DNA from: Arenicellales bacterium
Lineage (GTDB): Bacteria > Pseudomonadota > Gammaproteobacteria > Arenicellales > JAJDZL01
NCBI GenBank assembly: GCA_965203865.1
Contig: OZ241916.1
Coordinates: forward strand, 934,884-998,883
Direction of reading: 5' to 3'
DNA length: 64,000 bases
Within the stretch, counting starts at the first letter, position 1. Each line of letters starts with the position of its first letter. Positions 5,232-60,737 of the stretch are shown here, piece after piece. The notes under the pieces are model-generated. The model was not told the DNA's origin and did no database searches. It saw nothing but the letters and a program-made list of their open reading frames with translations. The translations under genes were made by a program, and so were the position numbers.

Positions 5232-5447
5232 ATACGAGCTGAACGAACATCACTTCGCCAGCATTCTTGCAGAACTGGCACTTATACCACTTTGAAGTAT
5301 AAGCGTTTTAATAAAACCTTATCAAAGTAAGTTGGATAGATTGAACTTGCGGAATGTGAGGCACCTCGCACCACGAGACAAGAATAGTTTTTTCACGAAT
5401 TGAAATAGGGTGGATTGGAAATATCGATCAAAACATGGAATTGAATT

Positions 5448-6350
5448 CTAATCATTAGCTGCTCTGGGAGATGAAGCAGGTTGAGCTAGAGTATCAATTA
5501 TTGCAGCACCCATTATCAGTACTACTCCAATTCCATGCGTCCAACCGAAAGGCTCCCCGGATAAGGTAGCTGCAGATACGACTCCAAAAATAATTTCAGA
5601 CATGAGCAAAATTCCTACTCGCGTCGGACTCAGTTTCTGATTAGCCCAAAACAGCAAAAACATTGAAGGAAAATATGCGATGACAAAAACTACTAGCCAT
5701 CCTTTACCCGCCAGAATTGAATCAAAGCTGGGTGCGTGGCCAAACGCTTCAATCGGAAGCAGTATAAAAACAGCAGATGCGATTACCGCACCTATATAGA
5801 ATGCTCCGACTTGCTCCCAAACTTTTGCTTTTACATCCCTGCGAATTCTCACTGAAGCATATGCCCAAAACATGCCGGATAGCAGGGCAATCCAGTCTCC
5901 CAAGTTTGATGGACGCGGAATACCGTTGTCAATCCCCAGAATCACTGCTAATCCCGCAAGCCCTAGAACTATCGCTACCACTCTAAATCTTGTAATTGTT
6001 TCCCGAAGCAGGAGTTTTCCAAGAAGGGCAGTCCACACTGGCATCAAGTAGAATAGCAGGACGACTTTGACAACTTCTGTTAGCCCAACTCCAGAGGCGT
6101 AGAAAATCACAGCAACCCCGGAAAATATTCCGGTAACTATGATTTCTCCTGGCATGCGTTGCGTGCGAATCCATTGAATCAAGAATGCAAAGGAAAAGAA
6201 TATTCCTACTACTCCAAGTGTCAAAAAATTCGCCCATATTGGAGAAACACCGATTTCATCCAACTCGCGTATTGGAATCCAGTACAAGCCCCATAAAGCA
6301 CCGCAGGCGACTACAGATATGCTGGGGAGCAAAGTGCGTTCGGAGCTCAA
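5448..6350 (-). CDS. EamA/DMT-family transporter
   Basis: 300 aa with about 10 hydrophobic segments arranged as two EamA-like halves. Confidence 0.8.
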   Translation of the reverse strand: MSSERTLLPSISVVACGALWGLYWIPIRELDEIGVSPIWANFLTLGVVGIFFSFAFLIQWIRTQRMPGEIIVTGIFSGVAVIFYASGVGLTEVVKVVLLFYLMPVWTALLGKLLLRETITRFRVVAIVLGLAGLAVILGIDNGIPRPSNLGDWIALLSGMFWAYASVRIRRDVKAKVWEQVGAFYIGAVIASAVFILLPIEAFGHAPSFDSILAGKGWLVVFVIAYFPSMFLLFWANQKLSPTRVGILLMSEIIFGVVSAATLSGEPFGWTHGIGVVLIMGAAIIDTLAQPASSPRAAND

Positions 6351-6484
6351 GTCGCTATAGTAAATGTGTTGGCCAAAACTATGGCCATGTTTACCAACTG
6401 TAGAGATTGGTGGATAGGTGAATCAATCTCGGAAATATCACTCAGGTTCTCTTGAAAAATCTAAATATTGCAACTTGCCCAAAA

Positions 6485-9400
6485 TTAGTTTACAGGTGCA
6501 AACAATTCTGAAATGTAGTTGTATCCTTCAATGGAATCGAAAAATAAAATGTGCTTTTCGGAAAACTTCTGAATATTCCACTCTTGATAGCCAAGCTTTT
6601 GTTGCATGGTTGAATAAGGAGTCACTGAGATGATAAACGAATCTAAAAAGATATTTTCCAAATTGGTGCGAGCACTGATTGTTTTCGATAATCTAGGCAG
6701 TATTTCGTGCAATCTTGCTTTGTCATTGTTTTCGTAAGGTTCTTCATGCATCATGCCGTGTACTTCAACGAAAACAATTCTTTGACTTCTAGAGTCTTTA
6801 ACCCATAAAATAAAATCAGGATAGAAGCCGCGTTTGTCGAAAAAACTTATACCTTCTCCATGACTCAGGTTGCGTGAAACAAATATTTCCTTGCCTGCCA
6901 AAGAGTTGTCTTTTTCAGATTGCCAGAATTGCCGTAAATCATCCACGAATTTTCGTTCGCTTTCATTCAGAGATGGTGGCGTACTTTGAATGTCGTCATC
7001 CGAAGCAACAAGCAACGGTTGATAAAGGAGGCGGTCGAAATGTATGATGCGCAGTTGTCGTTCTTTCCAAAAATTCATCTCGCCATTTTCTTCAATGAGT
7101 TTTTGGATTTCAGTGATGCGTCCCGTTTCTGCCGGGGTGACCTGCACCGTATAGTCTTGAAAAATTGAATCGTCTTCACTGAGTTGTTGATATGTCATTT
7201 GACTTGATTCCCACTTTTCTTTTCGCACTCGAAAATACTTGTCAATGTATTTTTTAAGAATCGTAACAATAGTTTCATGAAGTACTTTTTGGGTATCGGC
7301 AAATGATTTCGGGTTGGTCACTAGTTCGTCAGCAAATAAATGGTAAATATTCTCACTTTCGGGACGCTCCAATATTTTTCTTGGTGTATCCGAGAATATG
7401 GCAATGTTCGTATATCCTTTTACTTGCTTGTACTGAAGAAGCTCAAGATAGATTCTTTCCCAGTCGACAAGGTCTAGCATATCGGAAGAAATGTATCTTT
7501 TTTGTCCTGCAACCGCCTCCGAAGATATGAGCTTGTTGCCGCTACTTTTCAATGCCTGAATTTTGTAAGACAAGTCTACCCGAATGAAAGAATTCTTTTT
7601 GGGTTTCAGTAGAAAGGATTTTTCGTCAAGAAAGTTGCTGGTTTCTGGTAAGCGAGGCAGCACTAACCCTCTATCTAAAAATTCTTTATTTGGTTTAATT
7701 CTAAGTGGCATTTCGACCTTGTACGTTGTATCTATCCCTTCGTCTTCCAGAAATTTCCGAAACTTCATCATGTAATTTGCCCGTAGCGAAAAAATATTTA
7801 ATGTTTCCAGATAACCAATGTTCTGCGGATGACTCCCGCTAAGTGCTGCGCTTCTTTTCAGACTGAAATCCATTCCTCTGAGCCGCACTCCACGCCCGAA
7901 CAGCTGGATAATTCCCGAACCTGCTTTAAGACCGATATTCAGCAACCCCATATTGGAAACACGCCACGAATTCCAGCCTTCCATAAACTTCTTGGCTCCG
8001 ACCAGTACATCAATCGTAGTGTCGGGATTGTTTACGCTGTCGAACAAGGAACCGGCGATTACGTCTTCCTCCAGGACAATTCCGGAACTATCGTCTTGAA
8101 CCAGATTTCTGAACCGACCTGTGTCTCCGATATATATGAGTCCAAAATAGTCGTCAGCACCGCTTGCTTTCAGACCAATTTCACCCGCGTTACCCCGAAT
8201 ACTGCACAAGTGAAGACTACCGCCACCAGGAGCGTGAAATACCTTGGCAAGAATATCCTCGTACAATTTTTCTGGAGATAAGCCATTAACTCGAAGAAAT
8301 TCGAATTTACCATCAAAAGCATCTTTTCCCTCGGGTGTCTTTAATCCTGAATTGCCTTGAATGAGATTATCGACCCACTCCAGTACCCAACCATGTTTAT
8401 TTTGCAACACATGATGCAGAAACCGTGCAACAGTCAAGACATCACTCCGTTTCTCCTTTTGGTCAATATAAACTGCATTTACTGTGCTGCCGACAAATAC
8501 CCACAATGGCTTGTCTATACTGTACGGACGAAACAGTTCGATATTCTCCTCGTATATTTTGAGTTGTTCGTAAAAGGAAAGCAGATTGCCGAGCAGTAAC
8601 ATCTCCGTGTTCTGGACTGTTGTCTCATCCTTCATGTTCAGAATATGGAAATCCTTGCCAAATCCGTCGCGATGGAAATAGCGGTATGAATAGTCGAACA
8701 GTATCGATTTTCCATACTCTTCAGTAAGTTGCTCGTTCTTCGCTGCTGTAAGGGCCTGCCCGAATGTTGCGCTGTACTCGAAAGTAAACCCCATTCCGCC
8801 CAGAGAGTCGCGAAAGCTTCGCCAGGTTTCGCCGCCTGAGCCTTTGTGCCCCTCGTCGACAAAGATCAAGTTGTTGCCCTCGAAAGCCTCTACAGGTACG
8901 CTTGCTCCACCGCCTCTTTTCTCTTCGACAAGCTTGGTAATTTCGATCACTTGGACCGTGTTCTTGCTGTCCGAAAATAGTCCGCGCCCGTCCAGGCCAA
9001 AACTACAGCATGGAATATTTGACAAGGAAAAGTCGTTCAAATGCTGCTCGCTCAATCCTTCATTTGGCGTAATGAGAATAATGTTGTCAAGCGGCATATT
9101 GCAGTAGTGGAGAAATTGTCGATAATTGATGTGCATGATAAGGGTCTTGCCACTACCTGTAGCCATCCAGTAGGCTAGCTTGTTCAAGTCATCTTCTGTA
9201 AAAACTGTACTGATATGCTGATAAACCCGGCTAGTGGCATTCAAGTTTGCTACAAATTTGTTTAATGCCTGTCGCAGTTCTCCGCGTTGGTTAAAGTATT
9301 TGTCCAGATAAACTTCTGTGTACAGGACGGATAGATGCTGAAAATATCGTAGTGTAATTGGTTCGAATCGATTTGTATTCATCAAGCGTACATGGTCGCG

Positions 9401-46809: not shown

Positions 46810-47904
46810 ATGAACGAGAATTCAATTTCGATGAAAGGGGGCGGCTACTACTCCCAGCATACGCAGGGTGCCAAGCATGTAGTCAATCGTGCAGGTGTGC
46901 ATGTTCTGGAGCATTGTGCAAAATTGGATATTTCCGACTCGGGTCGTCCATTCACAATCGCAGATTACGGGGCTGCGGATGGGGGAACTTCTCTTGAATT
47001 GATTACTGCAATTGTAGAAAAAGTGCGGGAAAAGGCACCGAATCGGGAAATTCAGGTTGTTTACACAGATCTACCGCACAACGATTTTTCAGCTTTGTTC
47101 AAAATGCTTGACGGGCAAGTATCAGAACTGGAGAGTTATCTTAGCAGGTTCAACGGGGTATACGTCAGCGGTGCCGGTTCATCTTTCTATCAGCAGATTT
47201 TGCCAAGTTCCTCGGTTGATATCGGATTTTCTGCAACGGCGATGCACTGGTTGAGCAGTTTGCCGGGAGTTGTCACCAATCATGTTCACGCGACAGGAGC
47301 CAGCGGGGAGGAGTTGAAAAAATTCAGCGACTACGCGCAGCAGGATTGGGAGACCATTTTGCTGAACCGGGCGAAAGAACTTGCACCGGAAGGCTTGCTG
47401 GTGATGGCAAACTTCTGTATTGATGAAGAAGGCAGATATCTGGGCAACACACAAGGCGCCAACATGTTCGATATGTTTCAAAAACTTTGGAAAGAACTGG
47501 CAGATTGTGGAGTGATTACACATGAAGAATGTCGGACAACAACTTTTCCGCAGTTCTACAAAACACTGGAACAATTTCAAAAACCATTCAACGACCCCAG
47601 CAGCCCTGTCAGTCTAGCCGGACTCAAGCTTGAAACAATCTATTCGGGTGTAACGGAATGCCCCTACCGGGCTGAATTCAATCGCACCGGTGATTCGGTT
47701 GCATTCGCGAATGAATATGTTCCTACGCTTCGCTCCTGGAGCGAAGGTGTGTTCATGGGCGGTTTGGATTCAAGCCGGCCGCTTGCTGAAAGGCAAAGAA
47801 TCGTAGAGGAGTTTTTTGAGAACTACAATTCCATGGTGCGAAAAAATCCGGAAATTCATGCAATGGATTACGTACATGTGTACATGGTTGTAAGCAAGGC
47901 TTGA
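46810..47904 (+). CDS. SABATH-type (Methyltransf_7-like) SAM-dependent carboxyl methyltransferase
   Basis: MKGGGYYSQHT, IADYGAADGGTS, YTDLPHNDF, GSFYQQILP and ATAMHWLSSLP appear in the same order as the plant salicylate/jasmonate carboxyl methyltransferase motifs. Confidence 0.6.
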   Translation: MNENSISMKGGGYYSQHTQGAKHVVNRAGVHVLEHCAKLDISDSGRPFTIADYGAADGGTSLELITAIVEKVREKAPNREIQVVYTDLPHNDFSALFKMLDGQVSELESYLSRFNGVYVSGAGSSFYQQILPSSSVDIGFSATAMHWLSSLPGVVTNHVHATGASGEELKKFSDYAQQDWETILLNRAKELAPEGLLVMANFCIDEEGRYLGNTQGANMFDMFQKLWKELADCGVITHEECRTTTFPQFYKTLEQFQKPFNDPSSPVSLAGLKLETIYSGVTECPYRAEFNRTGDSVAFANEYVPTLRSWSEGVFMGGLDSSRPLAERQRIVEEFFENYNSMVRKNPEIHAMDYVHVYMVVSKA

Positions 47905-49916: not shown

Positions 49917-50094
49917 ATTTGCAGAGTAGCAAGCTTGAATTTAGACGCAAAATGTATTGCAAATTATTCAATTCTGCCCCCCTTGCCCTGCTCTCAGCAT
50001 TGATTTTTCAGTGCCTTAAGTGGGGTGACAGGGGGAATCAAGCAATCTTGGATGAACGTTCATAATGAATTGATTTCAATTGAATTTTTCTATC

Positions 50095-50105
50095 GGGGGG
50101 GGGGG
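50095..50105 (+). repeat. G11 homopolymer in the upstream region of the giant ORF
   Basis: Counted directly: tatc G11 tgaaat. It lies about 46 nt upstream of a TATAAT hexamer (50151-50156) and about 130 nt upstream of the ATG at 50235. Confidence 0.95.
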
Positions 50106-50234
50106 TGAAATATGTTAAATCTCGAATGAATTTTACATGCCCGGATTGTTTATAATAAGCAGAAAGATTCTCTGGTTGTTCGGGCCGGGGCATATTTAAA
50201 TTTTTGTTATAAAAAGATTTTCAGGCAGGAACCA

Positions 50235-50435
50235 ATGAAATTGATATTGAAGCTGATTGAACCAATTGCTTGGCTTTGCAGTCGAAAGAGTTTTGCTTTG
50301 GCGCATAAATTAGTGGGGGGGGGGGGTATTCAGGAATACTTGCATATTCGAAAGCCCGGCCCGCCGACTCGCGCTTTCCAAGCACATTGCCTGTTCGCTA
50401 CTGGCGGTGACAATATCAGTATGCATGCTACCTGA
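50235..50435 (+). CDS. 5' ORF with RBS and ATG containing a G12 tract; probable out-of-frame N-terminus of the downstream giant ORF
   Basis: agga RBS 4 nt before the ATG. The ORF encodes MKLILKLIEPIAWLCSRKSFALAHKLVGGGG.. and terminates at 50433-50435, inside the 1990-aa ORF. Confidence 0.55.
   Translation: MKLILKLIEPIAWLCSRKSFALAHKLVGGGGIQEYLHIRKPGPPTRAFQAHCLFATGGDNISMHAT
50315..50326 (+). repeat. G12 homopolymer at the frame junction
   Basis: Counted directly: tagt G12 tatt. It lies inside the 5' ORF and directly follows the TAG (50311-50313) that closes the giant ORF's frame upstream. Confidence 0.95.
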
Positions 50436-53400
50436 TGTAAATGCGGAGATTAGGGGATTTCTAAGTCCGTATAGTGGGAGTAGTATTTATGCATACCAAT
50501 TAGATGGTGCGACGCTTGAGTTAGAAGATTTCCTCCAGCCGCCGGGACGTGGGTTTAAGAACGCTAGTGGCCTCGGTCATTATCGGTTCAAAAGTGGTAC
50601 CGCCCCCTCTGGCCTCTCAATTGCTAGTAAGCGAGTTGACCATAATGACTACTTGTTTTTGACTTTTAGTTGCACCGGCGCCTGCAGAACTGTCTCGTCG
50701 ACTACAACTGTTACCATTGAGGTCAGAAACACTGGATTTCAAGCTAGTGATATTATAGCTGCTGGATGGTATGACGAAGGCTCCTTCACAATCAATCCAA
50801 ACCCCAAGGTGCTGGTCACAAGCAACCCTACCAACAGCAGCACGGTCACGGAGGCGGGCAGCACGTCGACATTCACGGTGCAGCTCGGACAGGCGCCGTC
50901 GGCCAGTGTGACAGTCGCTGTTTCCAGCGGCGACTCCACCGAGGGCAGTGTGTCGCCCAGCACGATGACCTTCACGACCCAGAACTGGAACACTGCGCAG
51001 ACGGTGACAGTAACGGGAGCCAATGACAGTATACAAGACGGCAACGTGAGCTGGAATGTTGTGCTCAATCCGGCATCGAGCGGGGACAGCACGTACAACG
51101 GCTTGTCCAACGTGAATGTGGCGATGACCACCAGCGACGACGAAGGTTCGCCTTCCTTTTCGGTCAACTCGCCGAGCGTGACGGAAGGCGACACTGGCTC
51201 GGTGAACTTGACGTTCACGGTTACGATGAGTCCGGCGAGCACGTCTCAGTACACGGTGAACTACGCCGATGCGGGCACCGGCACGGCGACGTCGGGGACC
51301 GACTACACGGCTATCACCAGTGACACGCTGACTTTTGCGGCGAATGAGACGAGCAAGACGATTACGGTGTCGGTAACGGGGGACACGATAAACGAGCCGA
51401 ACGAGACGGTGGTGGTCACGCTGAGCAACGCGTCGACGGGTTCAACCATAGGGACGGCGAGCGGCACCGGCACGATCACGGACAACGACACGCCGAACTT
51501 TTCGATCAACTCGCCGAGCGTGGCGGAAGGCGACAGCGGCTCGGTGACCATGACGTTCACGGTTTCGCTGAATCCGGCGGGCGCATCGCAGCATACGGTC
51601 GACTACTCTCAAACAGGTGGCACGGCGATGTCGGGGACCGACTACACGGCGGTTTCTTCCGGCAGGCTGACGTTTGCGGCGGGTACGACGAGCCAGACGA
51701 TTACGGTGTCGGTGACGGGCGACACGACGGACGAGGGGGCGAGCGAGACGGTGGTGATTACGCTGAGCAATGCGTCGGCCGGAACCGCCATTTCGACGGC
51801 GAGCGGCACCGGCACGATTACGGACGACGACCCGAAATTCTCGATCAATTCGCCGAGCGTGACGGAAGGCGACAGCAGTTCGGTGAACCTGAACTTCACA
51901 GTGACGCTGAGTGCGGCGGGTGCGTCGCAGTACACGGTTGATTTCGCTGATGCGGGAACCGGGTCGGCGACTTCGGCCGACTACACGATCAGTACTTCTA
52001 GCCCGCTGACGTTTGCGGCGGGGACGACGACCCAGATGATTACGGTGTCGGTGACGGGTGACACGCTGGACGAGGGGGCGAGCGAGACGGTGGTGATTAC
52101 GCTGAGCAATGCGTCGGTTGGAACCGCCATTTCGACGGCGAGCGGCACTGGGACCATAACGGACGACGACCCGAAATTCTCGATCAATTCGCCGAGCGTG
52201 ACGGAGGGCGACAGCAGCTCGGTGACCATGACATTCACAGTGACGCTGAGTGCGGCTGGCGCGTCGCAGTACACGATCGATTTCGCTGATGCGGGAACCG
52301 GGTCGGCGACTTCGGCTGACTACACGATCAGCACTTCTAGCCCGCTGACGTTTGCGGCGGGTACGACGAGCCAGACGATTACGGTGTCGGTGACGGGCGA
52401 CACTTTGAACGAGGGGAACGAGACGGTGGTGGTCACACTGAGCAATGCGTCGGCAGGGACTGTTATTTCGACGGCGAGCGGCACCGGGACGATAATCGAC
52501 AACGACCTGGCATTTTCGATCGACTCGCCGAGCGTGGACGAGGGCGACAGCGGCGACTCGAATAGCCTGGTTTTCACCGTGACGCTGAGTGGGTCGGTTT
52601 CGACGACGCAGACGGTCGAATACGCCGAGGGCAGCGGTACAGCGACTTCGGGAACCGACTACACGGCGGTCACCGGCGGCACGCTGACGTTTGCAGCGAA
52701 TGAGACGAGCAAGACGATTACGGTGTCGGTGACGGGCGACGCGACTGACGAGGCGAACGAGACAGTGGTGATTGAACTGAGCAATGCGTCAACCACGATT
52801 TCGACGGCGACCGGCACCGGCACGATCACGGACGACGACCCGAAATTCTCGATCAACTCGCCGAGCGTGGTCGAGGGCGACAGCGGCGACTCAAATAGCC
52901 TGGTTTTCACCGTGACGCTGAGTGCGGCGAGCTCGTCGTCGCTGACAGTCAACTACGCCCGCACGGGCGGCACGGCGACTTCGGGGACCGACTACACGGC
53001 GATTTCTTCCGGCATGCTGACGTTTACGGGGACGACGACCCAGACGATTACGGTGCCGGTGACGGGCGACGCGATGGACGAGGGTGCGGGCGAGACGGTG
53101 GTGGTTACGCTGAGCAGCCCGTCGGCCGGCACGGGAATCTCGACGATGAGCGGCACCGGGACGATCACGGACGATGACCCGAAATTCTCGATCGATTCGC
53201 CGACGGTGACGGAGAGCGACACTGGCTCGGTGAATATGACATTCACAGTGACGCTGAGTGCTGCTGGCAATTCGCAGTACACAGTCGACTACACAAGTTC
53301 GGACGGGTCTACGAACGGTGCGACTGCCGGTACCGACTACACGGCGGTCTCTGGCACGCTGACGTTTGCGGCGGGGACCACGAGCGAGACGATTACGGTA

Positions 53401-56379
53401 TCGGTGACGGGCGACACGGCCAACGAGGCGAACGAGACGGTGATCATCACGCTGAGCAATCCGTCGGCGGGCACGGCGATTGCGACGGCAACCGGCACCG
53501 GCACGATCACGGACAACGACACGCCGAGCTTTTCGATCGACGATGCGAGCGTGGCGGAGGGCGACAGCGGTCAGACGAACCTGACGTTCACGGTGACGCT
53601 GAGTTTGCAGAGCTCGTCGGCGTTGACGGTGAACTACGCCACTTCGTCGAGCGGCTCGGGTTTTGGGCATGCGACAGCGGGAACCGACTACACGGCGGTG
53701 ACCACTGCGGGCTCGGTGACGATTGCGGCGAACACCACGAGCAGTACGTTTAATATTGTAGTGTCGGGCGACACGACGGCGGAGCCGGACGAGACGTTCA
53801 CGGTGACGCTGAGCGGCAATCCGGCGGGCACGAACCTTGACCCTGACAAGACGAGCGCCACTGGTACGATACGAAACGACGATGCGGGTCTTTCGATCAG
53901 CGATGCGAGCACAGCGGAGGACGGCAACCTGGAGTTCACGGTGACGCTGAGTCCGTCGACATCGTCTCAGGTGACGGTGAGCTACGCTACTTCAAGCGGC
54001 ACCGGGTCTGGACATGCGACTGCGGGGAGCGACTATACGGCGATATCCGCCACCACGCTGACGTTTGCGGCGGGAGCGACGGGGAGTGCCTTGAGCCAGA
54101 CGATTACGGTTCAGGTGACGGACGACACGGTGAACGAGCCGGACGAGACGCTGACAGTGACACTGAGCAGTGCATCCGGTGCGGGCTTGGTGGATGCCAC
54201 GGGCACGGGCACGATCACGGACAACGATACGCCTAGCTTTTCGATCAACTCGCCGAGCGTGAACGAGGGTGACAGCATGGCGAGCCTGGAGTTCACTGTT
54301 TCACTGAGTCCGGCGAGCTACCAGGAGACGACGGTGAACTATGCGGTTACGGGTGGGACGGCGACTTCGGATACCGATTATACGGCGCTTGCCGCCAGTA
54401 CCACGCTGACGTTTGCTATAGGGGATACGAGCCAGACGATTACGGTGTCGGTGACGGACGACCTGGATTTCGAGGAGAATGAGACCGTGGTGATTACACT
54501 GAGCGGTGCGTCGCCGGGTACGACGATTGCGACGGCGAGCGGCACCGGGACAATCACCAATGACGACCCAGGCATTTCGATCGCTGATGCGACGGTTGAA
54601 GAGGGCGATGAGGACGATAGGAACATGCTGACGTTCACGGTGACGCTGTCGCCGGCGCCGACGGACCAGGTGACGGTCGACTATGCCAGTTCGGACGGGA
54701 CTACGAATGGTGCGACTGCGGGTACCGACTACACGGCGGTCTCCGGCACGCTGACGTTTGCGGCGAGTGAGACCAGCAAGCCGATTTCGGTTTCAGTGAT
54801 CGGGGATATCCTGTCGGAGCCGAACGAGACGGTAGTGGTGACGCTGAGCAACCCGAACCCGTCGTACACGCTGGTGGAAGCCAGTGCCATGGGCACCATA
54901 ACGGACGACGACGAAGTGGTTCAGAACGAGCTGGACATGGAGATTGTCGCTGAGGTTGCGCGTGAGGTTACCACGAGCGTGGTGACTGCGGTCAGCAACC
55001 GGGTCGGTTCGGTGGTTGGCGGCGTAGCAATTGCCCCGCTGGTCAATGAGCCGTCGGTTGGCATGCCTTCAACGGGGGGATTTGCAGACAGTGGACTGCT
55101 TTCGATTCTGGCGCGTTCAGTGCGGCACGACCGCGAGCGAGACGGCGGACTGGAGCGCTCGGAGATGTCGCTGTATCGTTCACTGGACGGTGCGAGCTTT
55201 GCCTACTCGCCGAGTGTGCTGAGTGCGAACGGCTCAGCCGGTGCGACCGGCGGGCATTCCGGTATCCTGACTGTGTGGGGTTCGGTCGACTATCGCAAGA
55301 TGTCGGGAAGCGGCGAGGGTGCCTTGACATGGGATGGCGAGCTGGCGTCTTTGAATATTGGCACTGACACGCTGAGCGAGTCCGGGGTTCTGTTCGGCGT
55401 GGCGGTCGGTGCGTCGAAGGGGAGCTTCGGCTATCAGGGCAGTATCAGCGGCAGTAGCGGCTTGCTGAAGATGCAGGTAACAACGCTGAATCCCTATGTT
55501 GGCTGGTCGGTGTCTGAGTCGGCGAGCCTGTGGGCATCGGTCGGCTATGGCAGGGGCAAGATTAACTACAACGACAATGAGGCTGAAGCATCCTCGAGCA
55601 AGATGAAGCTGGCCAGTGCGGCTTTTGGAGGTCGCTATCGCCTGTTTTCGGCTGATGGCTTAGCAGACGGCCGCTTGGTTCAGGTAGATCTCAAGGGCGA
55701 GGCCTGGGGTCTGCGGAACAAGGTTGAAGGAGACGAGCAGCGTCCGATGGGGTCGAAGTCCCGGGCACACGGAATGCGCCTTGCGATTGAGAGGCATAGT
55801 AGCGGTGTGCTTGAGTCCGGCGCTTTTATGGTGTTGTCGGGCGAGGCCGGCGTACGCTGGGACGGCGGTGACGGCGACACCGGAGCCGGCTTTGAGATGG
55901 GCGGCATGGCGGACTACAGCGATTCTGCAACCGGCATGAAGATGGTTGCGACGGCCCGCGTCTTGGTGGACCATGAAAGCGACAACCGGAAGGAGTGGGG
56001 CGCCGGCTTGACTGTGGGATGCAGGATTGATGGTCGAGAGACTGGCATGACTTACAGGTCTTCGCTGTCGCACGGGCAGGCGGAAAGCGGTGTTGAATCT
56101 CTATGGGACAGTAGCGCCGCCAGTCGCACATCGTCCGAAGAGAAGAGTTTGGCGACGCGTCTGGACGCAGAGGTCGGCTATCGCTTTTATGGAAGCAGCG
56201 GCCTGCACACGCCGTATGTTGGATTCGGAGCGGAAGACAGCAGCAGGCGCGACTACCGTGTTGGCATGCGCTATGCGGGCGGGTCGGCGATATCTTCGGG
56301 TATGGAGTTTGAGCGTCGCGAAGCGGGCAGCAAGCAGCCTGACCACAGGGTCATGCTGACAGGGCGGATGAACTGGTAG
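50407..56379 (+). CDS. giant surface protein: divergent N-terminal region, 11 Calx-beta-like repeats and an autotransporter-like C-terminal beta-barrel
   Basis: 1990 aa counted from a GTG. The repeat unit is FSINSPSV.EGDSG..FTVTLS..YTVDY..GTATSGTDYTA..LTFAAGTTSQTITVSVTGD...E.NETVVVTLSN..GTGTITDDD. The C-terminal ~400 aa show alternating beta-strand patterns and end in ..MLTGRMNW. The same frame stays open upstream to 50314 and encodes ..ARRLALSKHIACSLLAVTISVCMLPDVNA|E. Confidence 0.8.
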   Translation: MTISVCMLPDVNAEIRGFLSPYSGSSIYAYQLDGATLELEDFLQPPGRGFKNASGLGHYRFKSGTAPSGLSIASKRVDHNDYLFLTFSCTGACRTVSSTTTVTIEVRNTGFQASDIIAAGWYDEGSFTINPNPKVLVTSNPTNSSTVTEAGSTSTFTVQLGQAPSASVTVAVSSGDSTEGSVSPSTMTFTTQNWNTAQTVTVTGANDSIQDGNVSWNVVLNPASSGDSTYNGLSNVNVAMTTSDDEGSPSFSVNSPSVTEGDTGSVNLTFTVTMSPASTSQYTVNYADAGTGTATSGTDYTAITSDTLTFAANETSKTITVSVTGDTINEPNETVVVTLSNASTGSTIGTASGTGTITDNDTPNFSINSPSVAEGDSGSVTMTFTVSLNPAGASQHTVDYSQTGGTAMSGTDYTAVSSGRLTFAAGTTSQTITVSVTGDTTDEGASETVVITLSNASAGTAISTASGTGTITDDDPKFSINSPSVTEGDSSSVNLNFTVTLSAAGASQYTVDFADAGTGSATSADYTISTSSPLTFAAGTTTQMITVSVTGDTLDEGASETVVITLSNASVGTAISTASGTGTITDDDPKFSINSPSVTEGDSSSVTMTFTVTLSAAGASQYTIDFADAGTGSATSADYTISTSSPLTFAAGTTSQTITVSVTGDTLNEGNETVVVTLSNASAGTVISTASGTGTIIDNDLAFSIDSPSVDEGDSGDSNSLVFTVTLSGSVSTTQTVEYAEGSGTATSGTDYTAVTGGTLTFAANETSKTITVSVTGDATDEANETVVIELSNASTTISTATGTGTITDDDPKFSINSPSVVEGDSGDSNSLVFTVTLSAASSSSLTVNYARTGGTATSGTDYTAISSGMLTFTGTTTQTITVPVTGDAMDEGAGETVVVTLSSPSAGTGISTMSGTGTITDDDPKFSIDSPTVTESDTGSVNMTFTVTLSAAGNSQYTVDYTSSDGSTNGATAGTDYTAVSGTLTFAAGTTSETITVSVTGDTANEANETVIITLSNPSAGTAIATATGTGTITDNDTPSFSIDDASVAEGDSGQTNLTFTVTLSLQSSSALTVNYATSSSGSGFGHATAGTDYTAVTTAGSVTIAANTTSSTFNIVVSGDTTAEPDETFTVTLSGNPAGTNLDPDKTSATGTIRNDDAGLSISDASTAEDGNLEFTVTLSPSTSSQVTVSYATSSGTGSGHATAGSDYTAISATTLTFAAGATGSALSQTITVQVTDDTVNEPDETLTVTLSSASGAGLVDATGTGTITDNDTPSFSINSPSVNEGDSMASLEFTVSLSPASYQETTVNYAVTGGTATSDTDYTALAASTTLTFAIGDTSQTITVSVTDDLDFEENETVVITLSGASPGTTIATASGTGTITNDDPGISIADATVEEGDEDDRNMLTFTVTLSPAPTDQVTVDYASSDGTTNGATAGTDYTAVSGTLTFAASETSKPISVSVIGDILSEPNETVVVTLSNPNPSYTLVEASAMGTITDDDEVVQNELDMEIVAEVAREVTTSVVTAVSNRVGSVVGGVAIAPLVNEPSVGMPSTGGFADSGLLSILARSVRHDRERDGGLERSEMSLYRSLDGASFAYSPSVLSANGSAGATGGHSGILTVWGSVDYRKMSGSGEGALTWDGELASLNIGTDTLSESGVLFGVAVGASKGSFGYQGSISGSSGLLKMQVTTLNPYVGWSVSESASLWASVGYGRGKINYNDNEAEASSSKMKLASAAFGGRYRLFSADGLADGRLVQVDLKGEAWGLRNKVEGDEQRPMGSKSRAHGMRLAIERHSSGVLESGAFMVLSGEAGVRWDGGDGDTGAGFEMGGMADYSDSATGMKMVATARVLVDHESDNRKEWGAGLTVGCRIDGRETGMTYRSSLSHGQAESGVESLWDSSAASRTSSEEKSLATRLDAEVGYRFYGSSGLHTPYVGFGAEDSSRRDYRVGMRYAGGSAISSGMEFERREAGSKQPDHRVMLTGRMNW
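51157..54915 (+). repeat. 11 tandem ~339-bp coding repeats (Calx-beta-like units)
   Basis: The period is visible in the sequence and in the 339-nt spacing of antisense ORFs (51303, 51642, 51981, 52320, 52659). Units 51838-52176 and 52177-52515 are roughly 90% identical by eye. Confidence 0.9.
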
Positions 56380-56724: not shown

Positions 56725-58161
56725 GGTTAAGTCTTAAAATTCCTGTAAAAGTCTAATTGGGGGGATCGAGAGGTCCTCTGTGCGATTACAATTTAATAAT
56801 TTCACATTTTTACAACAAAAGAATCGAGGAGGACCTCGCGATGAGTAGAATGATAAGTCCAAGCCAGGAGAAAAAGCAAGAGCTGAATGAGATGATTGAG
56901 AATGGTTTCGCTGGCGAAGGGGATGTTTTTCGGGAGTTTATCAAATTGACAGTGGAAAGCGTGTTTCAGCAGGCGCTGGAAGATGAGCAGAGTGAGTTTT
57001 TGGATCGAGGGCGCTACCAGCGCAAGTCGGAGCCGTCGACGGTGCACCGCAACGGCTACGAACCGGGGCATTTGAAGACTGCGGAGGGAGTGATGCAAGT
57101 GAAGTTGCCGCAGGTTCGCGGTCTGGGCGAGCCGTATCGCTCGCGGTTGTGGAGCGAGATGCCGCGTACCAGCGAATCGCTGAAGTCGCTGGTGGTGGAG
57201 ATGTATGTGAACGGCATGTCGACCCGCGACATTGAGCATTCGATGGAGGCGGCGCTGGGCGAGTTTTCGTTGTCGAAGAGTACCGTCAGTCGCCTGTGCG
57301 AGTCGCTGAGCGAGGACTACGAGCGTTTCAAGGAGCGCGACTTGAGTGGCTACGACGTGGCGTATTTGTTTGTGGATGCGGTGTACGAGCCGTTGCGTCG
57401 TCACGGCACCCGCAGCGGTGTTCTGTGCTGCTGGGCGATTTGCAGCGATGGCAGTCGGGTGCTGCTGGACCTGACCTTGGCCAACAGCGAGAGCAAGGTA
57501 TCGGTGATTGAGTTTTTTCAAGGGATGATTCGCCGGGGTCTTCAGCCGCCGCTGACGGTGACCACCGATGGTGCCGGGGGACTGATGGCGGCGGTGGAGG
57601 AGACGTGGCCGCGCACCTTGCGAGTGCGCTGCTGGTTTCACAAGATGCAGAATCTGCGGCAGAAGGTTCCGCCGAGCTTGTGGCCGGAATTTCGGCATCG
57701 GGTGACCGACTTTCGGGATGCACCGGATGAAGCCGAGGCTCGTCGCCGGCTGGAATCCATCCAGGCCGACTATGGCCGCGAGTTGCCCGAAGCCTTGCGT
57801 TGCCTAACCGACGACCTGGAAGCTTCGATGAACCATTTGGAGGTTCCGCCGCGGCACCGGCAGAATGTTCGCACGGTGAATCTGGTGGAGCGCAGCTTCG
57901 TAGAGGAGCGCCGACGAACCAAGGTGATCCCGCATCTGTGGGGCGAAAGAGATCTGACCAAGCTGGTGTATTCGGTGCTGATCCGATTGAGCGAACGCTG
58001 GTGCAAGCGCCGGTACTCGGAATCGGAAGAATGGCAGATCCGAGAGCTGCGCATGCGACTTTATCCAGAGCAGGAGGCGAGAAAACCCGTGCCAAGAACC
58101 AGAACTCGCAGAAGTGCGGCGAAAGCCGCCTAGACTTTTACAGGAAATTAGAGACTTGACC
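56725..58161 (+). mobile_element. IS256-family insertion sequence
   Basis: 1437 bp. The 31-bp imperfect terminal inverted repeats are ggttaagtcttaaaattcctgtaaaagtcta (56725-56755) and the reverse complement of 58131-58161 (27/31 match). One transposase ORF; its stop codon lies inside the right IR. Confidence 0.85.
56841..58133 (+). CDS. IS256/Mutator-family transposase
   Basis: 430 aa from the ATG at 56841, which follows a gaggagg RBS. The N-terminal FREFIKLTVESVFQQALEDEQSEFL..RNGYEPGHLKT is characteristic of the family. Confidence 0.85.
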   Translation: MSRMISPSQEKKQELNEMIENGFAGEGDVFREFIKLTVESVFQQALEDEQSEFLDRGRYQRKSEPSTVHRNGYEPGHLKTAEGVMQVKLPQVRGLGEPYRSRLWSEMPRTSESLKSLVVEMYVNGMSTRDIEHSMEAALGEFSLSKSTVSRLCESLSEDYERFKERDLSGYDVAYLFVDAVYEPLRRHGTRSGVLCCWAICSDGSRVLLDLTLANSESKVSVIEFFQGMIRRGLQPPLTVTTDGAGGLMAAVEETWPRTLRVRCWFHKMQNLRQKVPPSLWPEFRHRVTDFRDAPDEAEARRRLESIQADYGRELPEALRCLTDDLEASMNHLEVPPRHRQNVRTVNLVERSFVEERRRTKVIPHLWGERDLTKLVYSVLIRLSERWCKRRYSESEEWQIRELRMRLYPEQEARKPVPRTRTRRSAAKAA

Positions 58162-58913: not shown

Positions 58914-60737
58914 TTACGAGAGTCCCAAACGCTCAAGTGTTTCGTTAGTGGGAACCCCCTCTTCTGTCCAACCGCGAAGCTCATAATACTCTGGCAGCAT
59001 TTTGTTCAGTTCGTTTACCTTGCCTTTCGCCATTCCTGATTTGGCAGGTTCATTCAGCAACCTCGGTGGTAGTGAATCATCCTTACTGGTCAATCCTGCG
59101 GCGAGATTAAACTGTCGTTCAAGATTCCAGATCCGCTCGCCTGTTTCATACAGGCGTTCCACTGTCCAGTCGCCTTCGCAGGCAGCATCAATCTGCTGCT
59201 GAAAATCTGTAATCTTCCATCCCGACAGTGTGAACCAGCACAGTCCAGTGGAATCAATTAAAGAAATCTTGTCCTGAGATTTCTTGCACGGCAATGCCTT
59301 CCCGCCTCCGGTCTGATCTTCCATGTCGGGGCCAAATACATCATGCTTCATATGGCATGCGCCTCGACTGCTAGTTGCATAGCCAAGTCCCATACCTTGC
59401 AATGCTCGAGAATCATATCCGGCAAATTCCTGTCCTTTTACTGTCATTGAAAGCTCTGGATGTCCGTATTTCTCACACAGTCGCTTGGACCCCAATCCAA
59501 GAACCTTTCCAAATCCTTCATATTTCCCTGTTTTTTCTGCCATCACTGTAAGTGCTTCGGCATTTCCAAAATTCAATGGGATTCCGTCTGTATCCTTATC
59601 GGTAATTACTCCCATTTCATACAGTTCCATTGCGGCTGCGAGTGTACCGCCAAAAGAGATTGGGTCCATTCCGTGTTCGTTCATTAAAAATCCGGCGAAG
59701 GTCAGTGCATCAATATCATCAATACCGCAATCAGGTCCGAACGCAAATGCTGTTTCGTATTCCAGTCCGCCGCTTGCATGCCAGTATTCTGGACGATTTT
59801 TTATAGTAAAGTGGTCTTTGTCAATATGCGAAATGCGACCGCACGCTATGGTGCATCCAAAACAGGCTTTATTGGTTAGCAGGTTGCGATGCCCATTTTC
59901 ACGAACTGCCGTCATTGCTTTCGGATTGATATTGTCAACACCCTCAAATTGAACTTCCTTGAAATTTCGGGTGGGCAGTCCTCCAAACTCCTGCATGGCA
60001 TCAATCATCGCATTGGTCCCATACTCCGTTAGTTCACCAACATCTGTACTCGCTGCCAACTTTGCCTTGGTTTCCTTGACGACTCCCATAAACCGCTTCG
60101 GATTGTCCACTTTTACCCCAACTGTACCCCGAACAGCAATCGCCTTAAGATTTTTCGAGCCCATTACAGCTCCCACACCTGAGCGTCCTGCTGCCCGGTG
60201 CAAGTCATTAACAACACAGGCAAAGCGTACGCAATTTTCACCAGCTACCCCGATTGAAGCCACTTTGATCAACGGATCCTGATGTTCAGATTTGATCCAA
60301 TCCTCTGTTTCCCACACGGATTTGCCCCAAATGGGGTCTGCTGGAATAATGTCGACTTGATCATCAACAATATGCAAATAAACCGGATGAGGTGCTTTCC
60401 CTTCAAGAAGTAGCAAATCGTAGCCTGCAAATTTAAGTTCGGCGCCAAACTTCCCTCCAGAGTTTGAGCATGCCACTGCATTTGTAAGTGCGCCTTTCGT
60501 GATTACAGCATACCTGCCGGATGTGGATGCCATAGTTCCTGTAAGAGGGCCGGTTGCAAAAATGAGAACATTTCCGGGATCCAATGCATCTACCGATGGG
60601 TCCATGTTTTCATAAAGATACTTTGTACCCAGTCCTCGCTCACCCAGGTACTGCTGTGCCCACTCCATATTAAGCGGTTCAATTTCGGATGTTTGATTCG
60701 TGAGATTCACTCGCAAAATATTTCTTTGCCATCCCAT
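58914..60737 (-). CDS. tungsten/molybdopterin aldehyde:ferredoxin oxidoreductase (AOR family)
   Basis: 607 aa. The N-terminal ILRVNLT..EWAQQYLGERGLG is AOR-like, and CFGCTIACGR is a cluster-binding cysteine motif. Confidence 0.85.
   Translation of the reverse strand: MGWQRNILRVNLTNQTSEIEPLNMEWAQQYLGERGLGTKYLYENMDPSVDALDPGNVLIFATGPLTGTMASTSGRYAVITKGALTNAVACSNSGGKFGAELKFAGYDLLLLEGKAPHPVYLHIVDDQVDIIPADPIWGKSVWETEDWIKSEHQDPLIKVASIGVAGENCVRFACVVNDLHRAAGRSGVGAVMGSKNLKAIAVRGTVGVKVDNPKRFMGVVKETKAKLAASTDVGELTEYGTNAMIDAMQEFGGLPTRNFKEVQFEGVDNINPKAMTAVRENGHRNLLTNKACFGCTIACGRISHIDKDHFTIKNRPEYWHASGGLEYETAFAFGPDCGIDDIDALTFAGFLMNEHGMDPISFGGTLAAAMELYEMGVITDKDTDGIPLNFGNAEALTVMAEKTGKYEGFGKVLGLGSKRLCEKYGHPELSMTVKGQEFAGYDSRALQGMGLGYATSSRGACHMKHDVFGPDMEDQTGGGKALPCKKSQDKISLIDSTGLCWFTLSGWKITDFQQQIDAACEGDWTVERLYETGERIWNLERQFNLAAGLTSKDDSLPPRLLNEPAKSGMAKGKVNELNKMLPEYYELRGWTEEGVPTNETLERLGLS

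Follow-up and report, generated by a model that had tools for sequence, protein, structure and literature searches.

Architecture of the adhesin locus

The window analysed in this work, a stretch of 64,000 nucleotides (nt) from an Arenicellales bacterium (assembly GCA_965203865.1, contig OZ241916.1, positions 934,884 to 998,883 of the forward strand), contains a giant gene predicted to encode a surface adhesin, which is preceded by two long guanine homopolymers and a short leader open reading frame (ORF). The homopolymer adjoining the adhesin frame (run 2) is considered here as a candidate slipped-strand ON/OFF switch. The two homopolymers are the only runs of seven or more G or C in the window; both are located on the same strand before the adhesin gene, about 210 nt apart. 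As ~0.013 runs of at least 11 G or C are expected by chance per 64-kb window, neither run is a chance feature. The elements of the locus, with positions counted from the first letter of the window, are as follows.

50059-50084 (+): upstream block, consisting of TTCATAAT (50059-66), ATTGATTTCA (50069-78) and the palindrome TTCAATTGAA (50075-84), from an eight-locus alignment
50095-50105 (+): poly-G run 1 (G11), 45 nt upstream of a conserved TATAAT, read from the sequence
50124-50156 (+): block GAATGAATTTT...TTATAAT with a perfect -10 hexamer TATAAT at 50151-50156, from alignments and a spacing table
50227-50237 (+): leader ribosome-binding site AGGA and ATG, read from the sequence
50235-50435 (+): leader ORF as sequenced, 66 amino acids (aa; protein P0096), out of frame past run 2, with TGA at 50433-50435
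50311-50313 (+): TAG closing the adhesin frame directly 5' of run 2, read from the sequence
50314-56379 (+): open adhesin frame, 2021 codons and stop, by ORF reading
50315-50326 (+): run 2 (G12), by direct sequence reading
50327-50334 (+): TATTC spacer and AGG codon (50332-50334), the latter being the adhesin ATG start in relatives, from locus comparison
50332-50445 (+): signal-peptide coding region (R)NTCIFESPARRLALSKH / IACSLLAVTISVCML / PDVNA in the adhesin frame, predicted cleavage after VNA
51160-53604 (+): tandem array of 339-nt units (7.2 copies, 78% matches) coding for Calx-beta repeats
54901-56376 (+): C-terminal 492 residues, a predicted helix and then a beta-rich domain with the end ...GRMNW, from homologues

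The leader AGGA (50227-50230) lies 4 nt 5' of the ATG, and its predicted pairing with a generic anti-Shine-Dalgarno (anti-SD) sequence amounts to -6.5 kcal/mol, versus -3.9 kcal/mol in five loci with GGGTACAAG. The leader frame starts with MKLILKLIEPIAWLCSRKSFALAHKLVGGGG..., its first 27 codons (MKLILKLIEPIAWLCSRKSFALAHKLV) being the conserved part, passes through run 2 as glycine codons and is out of frame with the adhesin thereafter. The adhesin frame past the TAG reads WGGGVFRNTCIFESPARRLALSKHIACSLLAVTISVCMLPDVNA/EIRG and remains open through to 56379; its codons from 50314 to 50406 include no ATG, GTG or TTG, so that the first canonical start is GTG 50407, which gives a protein of 1990 aa. 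Deletion of one G from run 2 results in a single continuous ORF of 2047 aa. In general, G11 or G14 in run 2 fuses ATG 50235 to the 2021-codon frame, and G12 does not; all three frames are open and basic for ~30 codons past the run. These points (G12, AGGA with ATG 50235, the TAG at its place, the lack of canonical starts before 50407 and the effect of removing one G) had been reported in a preliminary description of the window and were all reproduced by our reading of the sequence, while run 1 and the identity of AGG 50332-50334 with an ATG of relatives were absent from it.

The same description had pointed to a signal-peptide-like stretch devoid of a canonical start, which holds as well. The stretch has an n-region with a net charge of +2, an h-region whose Kyte-Doolittle mean is 2.40 and an end of the AxA type kept in homologues; as sequenced, this n/h/c-type region has no start codon, and relatives encode the same region with an ATG. 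A protein started at GTG 50407 would have no n-region and half of the h-region (12-residue Kyte-Doolittle mean 1.07 vs 2.40), and, by this prediction, the GTG 50407 model cannot yield a functional signal peptide.

The product consists of an N-terminal domain followed by at least 11 Calx-beta repeats. Its last 492 residues had no direct match in Pfam, NCBIfam or PDB, no PF03797 match was obtained for the window protein with E values of up to 10, and a model of the C-terminus computed by AlphaFold from the single sequence was unusable (predicted local distance difference test, pLDDT, 29). A full HMMER scan of 1.84 billion representatives yielded 5146 homologues of these 492 residues; among the matches listed, the alignment extends to or near the C-terminal end, the proteins being mostly large, and six of ten scanned homologues, which matched the 492 residues with E 1e-41 to 1e-59, passed the PF03797 cut-off. 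The C-terminus is thus assigned, through homologues only, as a divergent autotransporter (type Va) beta-domain, and the product is predicted to be a surface protein made of a Calx-beta passenger and an autotransporter barrel, which agrees with the autotransporter-like nature proposed for it initially. As such, it depends on a Sec signal peptide. The 339-nt array is in itself a likely substrate for changes of repeat number in the passenger domain.

The two-run module in related loci

Besides the window, ten loci (L001-L010) were read as DNA. L001, found by a genome scan, belongs to an Arenicellales metagenome-assembled genome (OZ241380.1; 72% protein identity), while L002-L010 originate from ENA metagenome assemblies of six samples and were obtained by protein searches and subsequent contig look-ups. 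Four more homologues (P0103, P0105, P0106 and P0109) are known as proteins only. All the loci are consensus assemblies and represent diverged homologues (71-91% identity), not strains of one clone. The metagenomes with relatives of the module are marine; module-pattern scans of Joint Genome Institute (JGI) metagenomes and of viral sequences revealed no further module loci. The lengths of the two runs are given below.

Window: run 1, 11; run 2, 12
L004: run 1, 11; run 2, 12
L001: run 1, 11; run 2, 12
L007: run 1, 11; run 2, 12
L005: run 1, 11; run 2, 10
L002: run 1, 11; run 2, 11
L003: run 1, 11; run 2, 11
L006: run 1, 10; run 2, 12
L008: run 1, 12; run 2, 12
L010: run 1, 13; run 2, 5
L009: run 1 outside the retrieved sequence; run 2, 11

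A module of ~400 nt with both runs is present in the window and in nine of the ten relatives, L009 beginning just 37 nt before run 2. Its conservation begins near 50038, and its order is the same: upstream block, run 1, GAATGAATTTT...TTATAAT, leader ORF of ~30 codons (MKLILKLIEPIAWLCSRKSF...), adhesin-frame stop, run 2, TATTC and signal-peptide region. The stop of the adhesin frame is located 0-5 codons from run 2 in the 10 loci showing the leader and seven codons upstream of it in L009. A deletion between the two runs of L009 was considered and rejected, as its upstream 37 nt represent a diverged leader end. The flanks of the module are 71-91% identical among loci and both runs are nevertheless unbroken, which argues that selection favours long runs. 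Run 1 was observed in all 10 loci showing the region, the window included, with lengths of 10-13 (tallied as G11 in eight loci, G10 in L006, G12 in L008 and G13 in L010), and run 2 comprises 5, 10, 11 or 12 G (tallied in the homologues as one G5, one G10, four G11 with L009 included and five G12), so the comparison of orthologous loci proposed in the preliminary description did reveal tract-length polymorphism. In the closest pair, L002 and L006 (91% identical), runs 1 and 2 measure 11/11 and 10/12, respectively, representing a true length change; some of the other differences are due to substitutions at the run edges (GTGG to GCGA in L005, GAG11 to G13 in L010).

The identity of the module is decoupled from that of the downstream gene (88% vs 60% for L007/L010, 84% vs 46% for L003/L008 and 78% vs 85% for the window/L001), which suggests recombination or gene conversion at a shared 5' cassette.

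The upstream block just 5' of run 1 is a candidate site for a regulator. At 16-18 nt from TATAAT no recognisable -35 element was found. A canonical sigma-70 promoter with run 1 in its spacer was rejected: a consensus scan called none, and manually chosen -35 candidates were not conserved, TATAAT alone being so.

The leader is conserved at the nucleotide level in 10 loci, and its 36-nt core (TTGAACCAATTGCTTGGCTTTGCAGTCGAAAGAGTT) is nearly invariant across them without coding periodicity. A structured RNA leader or riboswitch was rejected as well, since no Rfam match appeared at E up to 5, the covariation term was +0.19 and the leader RNA of the window was no more stable than its shuffles (z = +1.28). 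The same data bear on a purely structural role of the runs, which, forming G-quadruplexes or pairing with UUCUCU (50168-73), could regulate transcription or ribosome access with no change of length. An intramolecular quadruplex of two tetrads needs at least G11, the prevailing state of run 1, and the consensus fold does pair UUCUCU with run 2. This fold, however, contains two compensatory pairs in 56, its covariation term is close to zero and L010 manages with G5 in run 2; altogether, we regard such a role as extremely improbable.

The comparison of loci also discloses what run 2 is in the relatives. The sequence GAGGGGG-TATTC-ATGAAT of L010 is a normal Shine-Dalgarno (SD) element with a 5-nt spacer and an ATG, the protein beginning with MNTRVIQSPARRPAL..., and an adhesin ATG likewise follows the run in L008 (G12-C-ATG, protein P0102), L009 (G11-C-ATG, P0101) and L002 (G11-TATTC-ATG), 1-5 nt downstream of it; P0101, P0102 and P0109 begin with MNTCIF... 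(MNTCIFESP...). In L010 and L008 the leader TGA overlaps the adhesin ATG (ATGA), which is the usual layout of translationally coupled genes. At the position of this start codon AGG is found in the window, L001, L005, L007 and the P0103 locus (in the latter as derived from the protein), and AAG in L004. A single T-to-G change (ATGA to AGGA) abolishes the adhesin start and the leader stop together. The predicted pairing of run 2 with the generic anti-SD sequence (-11.8 kcal/mol) is stronger than that upstream of any of the 26 other ORFs of the window. In the relatives, run 2 is therefore best read as the end of the leader ORF and the SD element of the adhesin ATG, and an expanded ribosome-binding site at the leader/adhesin junction is the apparent origin of the run. 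The placement of the run inside a long leader, as it was described previously, consequently holds in part: fusion to the leader remains the route for the ATG-less window, whereas in the relatives the run serves a separate adhesin ATG. As the window has no adhesin ATG, its adhesin would be expressed only where G11 or G14 fuses it in frame to the leader.

The junction also contains a palindrome, GTATTC-AG-GAATAC (50326-50339), which would form a small hairpin having the AGG/ATG codon in its loop. Around the ATG of L010, the sequence GTATTCATGAATAC is a perfect 14-nt palindrome, and a third copy of TATTC in the window (50345-49) allows alternative pairings.

Two explanations dispensing with a switch were weighed against these start-codon data. 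According to the first, the run is a very strong SD element only, and a near-cognate start (AGG 50332 or ATA 50344) provides weak constitutive expression independent of run length. The run and TATTC do precede the ATG of relatives at ideal spacing, the codon of the window still has the A and the G of ATG in first and third position, all six loci that lack the ATG carry AGG or AAG and never another codon, an in-frame ATA lies 17 nt past the run and the SD pairing is the strongest predicted in the window. AGG and AAG are, however, among the poorest bacterial initiators. An arginine or lysine equally suits the basic n-region of the fused protein, L005 and L007 have CTA in place of the ATA of the window, and the preservation of unbroken runs of 10-12 would be left unexplained, as G5 is enough for an SD element in L010, so that we consider near-cognate initiation improbable.

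The second explanation is a decaying gene that has lost its start (ATG to AGG), the run being a relic of a pseudogene. It would account for the signal peptide without a canonical start, and an IS256-family transposase directly downstream, the splitting of the related L003 gene by another one and an extra base in L001 that breaks its ESPARRL frame could be taken as signs of decay. A stop-free frame of 6066 nt would, however, be unexpected in a dead gene. Moreover, AGG is common to loci which have since diverged to ~72% protein identity and still possess ORFs of at least 2000 aa (the 6066-nt frame of the window, 2090 aa in L001 and at least 2056 aa in L005), and, read in the adhesin frame, the substitutions that distinguish the window from L004 and L005 past run 2 are either synonymous or conservative. 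Because of these preserved ORFs and the character of the substitutions, the AGG-type genes are evidently not dead, and decay is very improbable.

Run length, reading frame and expression

The adhesin frame occurs in all three states relative to the leader ATG. Among the 12 loci compared, it is in frame once (P0105), shifted by +1 seven times (window, L004, L001, L005, L007, L002 and L006) and by +2 four times (L003, L008, L010 and the P0103 locus). P0105, an ORF of 4391 aa in which leader and adhesin are fused, starts with MKLILMLIEPVAWLCSRKSSFALANKLTRGGGIHSDTCILESPVRRLSL...; from CILESP on, over ~57 of the 92 residues aligned, it is identical to the out-of-frame L006, the identical stretch covering signal peptide and mature N-terminus. 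A fused in-frame allele evidently exists, then, beside a closely related out-of-frame one. The frame counts are biased, since six loci were reached by way of small leader ORFs called on their own, a route that cannot lead to a fused locus.

The contig of the window carries more than one member of the family. P0103 and P0106 are encoded on the same contig of 3,147,672 bp as the window leader ORF P0096, which makes at least three members; two of these proved to be out of frame, and not by the same offset. P0103 is a leader ORF of 76 aa reading in the third frame, and P0106 is a 2654-aa autotransporter called from MLSDADA, i.e., without a signal peptide. The location of P0103 in the other wrong frame on the same contig fits random OFF states better than one fixed offset.

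Considering these results, we find it probable that run 2 is a slippage-gated translational switch of the Calx-beta autotransporter, OFF at G12 and ON at G11 or G14, paired with a second run in the promoter region. In the window, an exportable protein would be made only by those ribosomes which initiate at the leader ATG 50235 and leave run 2 in the adhesin frame, so that the signal peptide would require G11 or G14; at G12 the leader ORF stops at 50433-35 out of frame, and the gene as sequenced would be translationally OFF. Replication slippage in run 2 would then render expression reversibly ON or OFF, and the length of run 1 probably sets the promoter strength through the spacing of the upstream block to the promoter. 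On this view the run would change its length at high frequency in this organism, the fused protein would presumably be exported and functional, and the role of run 1 in promoter strength is proposed from its position.

The design of a contingency locus, with which the window had been credited from the outset, is supported by the slippable repeat kept in homologues, by its frame-changing length, by length polymorphism with ON and OFF frames (all three frames, including the fused P0105) and by the surface nature of the product; it is weakened by several observations. One of the 12 loci only is in frame, and no near-identical pair of loci differing in the run only was found among those compared (the best pair being 91% identical). 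The +1 offset is common to seven of the 11 loci that are out of frame, and compensating indels flank the run in L001, L007 and L006, which hints at selection for the out-of-frame state. The prevalence of G11 in run 1 (eight of 10 loci) constitutes low variation for a hypermutable run. The variable sites of the leader are distributed over the three codon positions as 7/6/9, with no third-position bias, and its interpretation as an extended signal peptide region (ESPR, PF13018) was rejected, since the fused N-terminus and the leader peptides gave no Pfam match at E up to 10; consequently, the use of the leader as a part of the protein is unsupported by its conservation pattern. Finally, the length data are assembly consensus, error-prone at long homopolymers, and switching within a population is thus something that we infer.

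The compensating indels, of +1 (L001), -14 (L007) and -1 nt (L006), are situated in the 30-70 nt after run 2, and each is offset by a change at or before the run. In L001 the site is 6064-6066 (CACAGTTGCC). The same nucleotides are consequently read in different frames between loci (VFRNTCIFESPARRL vs YSGILAYSKARPAD).

The uniform part of the offset data could reflect recoding at the RNA level, i.e., a +1 ribosomal shift in GGG GGG GGG GG or the dropping of a G by RNA polymerase, G12 then giving low constitutive expression and the out-of-frame layout being the working state. Seven of 12 loci are at +1 despite differing run lengths and flanking indels, with compensation in L001, L007 and L006; tRNA-Gly re-pairs perfectly in any frame of a G run, run 2 is a very strong anti-SD partner and an SD-like element (AGGGGG) near the P site is what stimulates the +1 shift in prfB. 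The offsets are mixed, however, with one in-frame locus and four +2 loci, including P0103 of the same genome, and the excess of +1 among the out-of-frame loci (7/11) is neither statistically significant nor free of the sampling bias. In contrast to prfB, the leader frame shows neither a stop nor an obviously slow codon where the run ends, and it stays free of stops for 36 codons past the run; L002, L008, L009 and L010 (P0109 likewise, by its protein only) have a post-run ATG and need no recoding. To our knowledge, transcriptional slippage has been documented for A/T runs and not for G runs. Recoding is hence judged unlikely. A fixed programmed +1 offset, attractive as long as it was common to seven of eight loci with compensating indels, was rejected on similar grounds, being weakened by the +2 offset of L008, L010 and P0103 and by the in-frame P0105.

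Nor does slippage operate if G12 is an error of the consensus; the true run would then be G11, and the gene would simply be intact, its N-terminus extended by a long leader. To judge from their contig names and coverage tags, several related assemblies resemble long-read metagenomes, whose consensus errs at homopolymers of 11-12, and in the low-coverage L002 (4x) the gene is split into three called pieces. On the other hand, L004, which derives from another sample and a scaffold-type assembly, has the same TTAGT-G12-TATTC and the same out-of-frame relation; lengths of 5, 10, 11 and 12 and all three frames occur across the data sets, and the error would have to recur in one direction across several independent assemblies. 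We therefore hold a consensus error to be quite unlikely.

A broader reading, which we put forward tentatively as a possibility, is that the two runs act as a combinatorial switch for a whole family of giant adhesins in a possibly animal-associated marine bacterium: run 2 could have arisen by expansion of an SD element at the ATGA junction (as in L010 and L008), and the T-to-G loss could have made the coupled leader ORF an obligatory, run-gated start. If so, this would be an undescribed evolutionary route to a contingency locus. It would also yield intermediate states, the leader ending at the adhesin start, being fused to it or reading past it according to the length of the run. Set side by side, the loci illustrate step by step how a ribosome-binding site can grow into a switch.

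Comparison with known systems and genomic surroundings

Poly-G/C runs of this type have been described in autotransporter genes (PMC4488443). The window resembles Neisseria pilC and NalP/MspA, the poly-G genes of Campylobacter jejuni including capA, and Chlamydia pmpG in having ~10-12 G at the 5' end of a gene for an outer-membrane protein or autotransporter, in the frame from start to signal peptide being set by run length and in the occurrence of alleles in ON and OFF frames. It differs from these contingency loci in that the segment before the run is a separate, nucleotide-conserved leader ORF, that the run is the ribosome-binding site of the adhesin ATG in relatives, the window having become run-dependent through the loss of that ATG, and that the host is an uncultured marine Arenicellales-like bacterium and no classical pathogen, for which switching is proposed from sequence.

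Two-level phase variation is known for Helicobacter pylori sabA (promoter poly-T and 5' CT repeats) and Neisseria meningitidis porA (promoter poly-G and coding poly-A). As in these genes, one repeat here is in the promoter region and the second one near the coding start of the same surface-protein gene; in contrast to them, both are poly-G on one strand, ~210 nt apart, and run 1 is upstream of, not between, the -35 and -10 positions. In the Treponema pallidum tpr subfamily II, Bordetella fim and Moraxella catarrhalis uspA1, a G/C run of ~7-14 near the promoter sets the expression level. These systems share with the module a G run near the promoter common to several paralogous surface-protein genes, whereas run 1 varies little (mostly 11) and is positioned here relative to TATAAT. 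A conserved 5' cassette (homopolymer promoter, signal peptide) on divergent, internally repetitive bodies of a multigene family brings to mind Mycoplasma vlp/vsp, as does the decoupling of module and passenger identity; unlike those lipoproteins of wall-less bacteria with poly-A promoter runs, the genes considered here are predicted to encode giant Calx-beta autotransporters of a Gram-negative organism, with a translational run added. The site AGG GGG UAU CUU UGA of prfB (RF2) is similar in that UAU follows a G-rich, SD-like element shortly before the point where a +1 change of frame is required, and differs in that past run 2 there is no in-frame stop or shift-prone codon and the offset is unconserved among loci. 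Literature searches returned no report of the poly-G feature described here. Within this well-known kind of locus, the points of interest are the lineage concerned, a two-run module common to the family and the apparent derivation of the run from a ribosome-binding site.

Phase-variable surface proteins are a textbook matter for a handful of human pathogens, and the same logic would apply here to an uncultured marine gammaproteobacterial lineage (Arenicellales-like) and to a family of Calx-beta autotransporters of 2,000-4,400 residues with at least three members on the 3.15-Mb contig of the window. Confirmed switching would mean that bacteria of this kind, too, hedge the exposure of huge adhesins, which bears on their attachment to, or escape from, hosts, grazers and phages. 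For annotation, the locus serves as a warning, as gene calling truncates the starts in this family (MTISVCML..., MLSDADA...), whose members would then be taken for proteins devoid of a signal peptide.

The surroundings of the adhesin gene are those of an ordinary chromosome (Mrp antiporter, Lon, PpiD, tRNAs, amidase) and include the following ORFs.

46810-47904 (+): SABATH-type S-adenosylmethionine (SAM) carboxyl methyltransferase (PF03492)
56757-58133 (+): IS256/Mutator-family transposase, directly 3' of the adhesin gene
58914-60737 (-): aldehyde:ferredoxin oxidoreductase

In L003 a transposase of the same family as that of the window (5278-6570, minus strand) splits the homologous gene into pieces of 420 aa and 1463 aa. 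The SABATH family (PF03492), to which the neighbouring methyltransferase belongs, is known mostly from plants.

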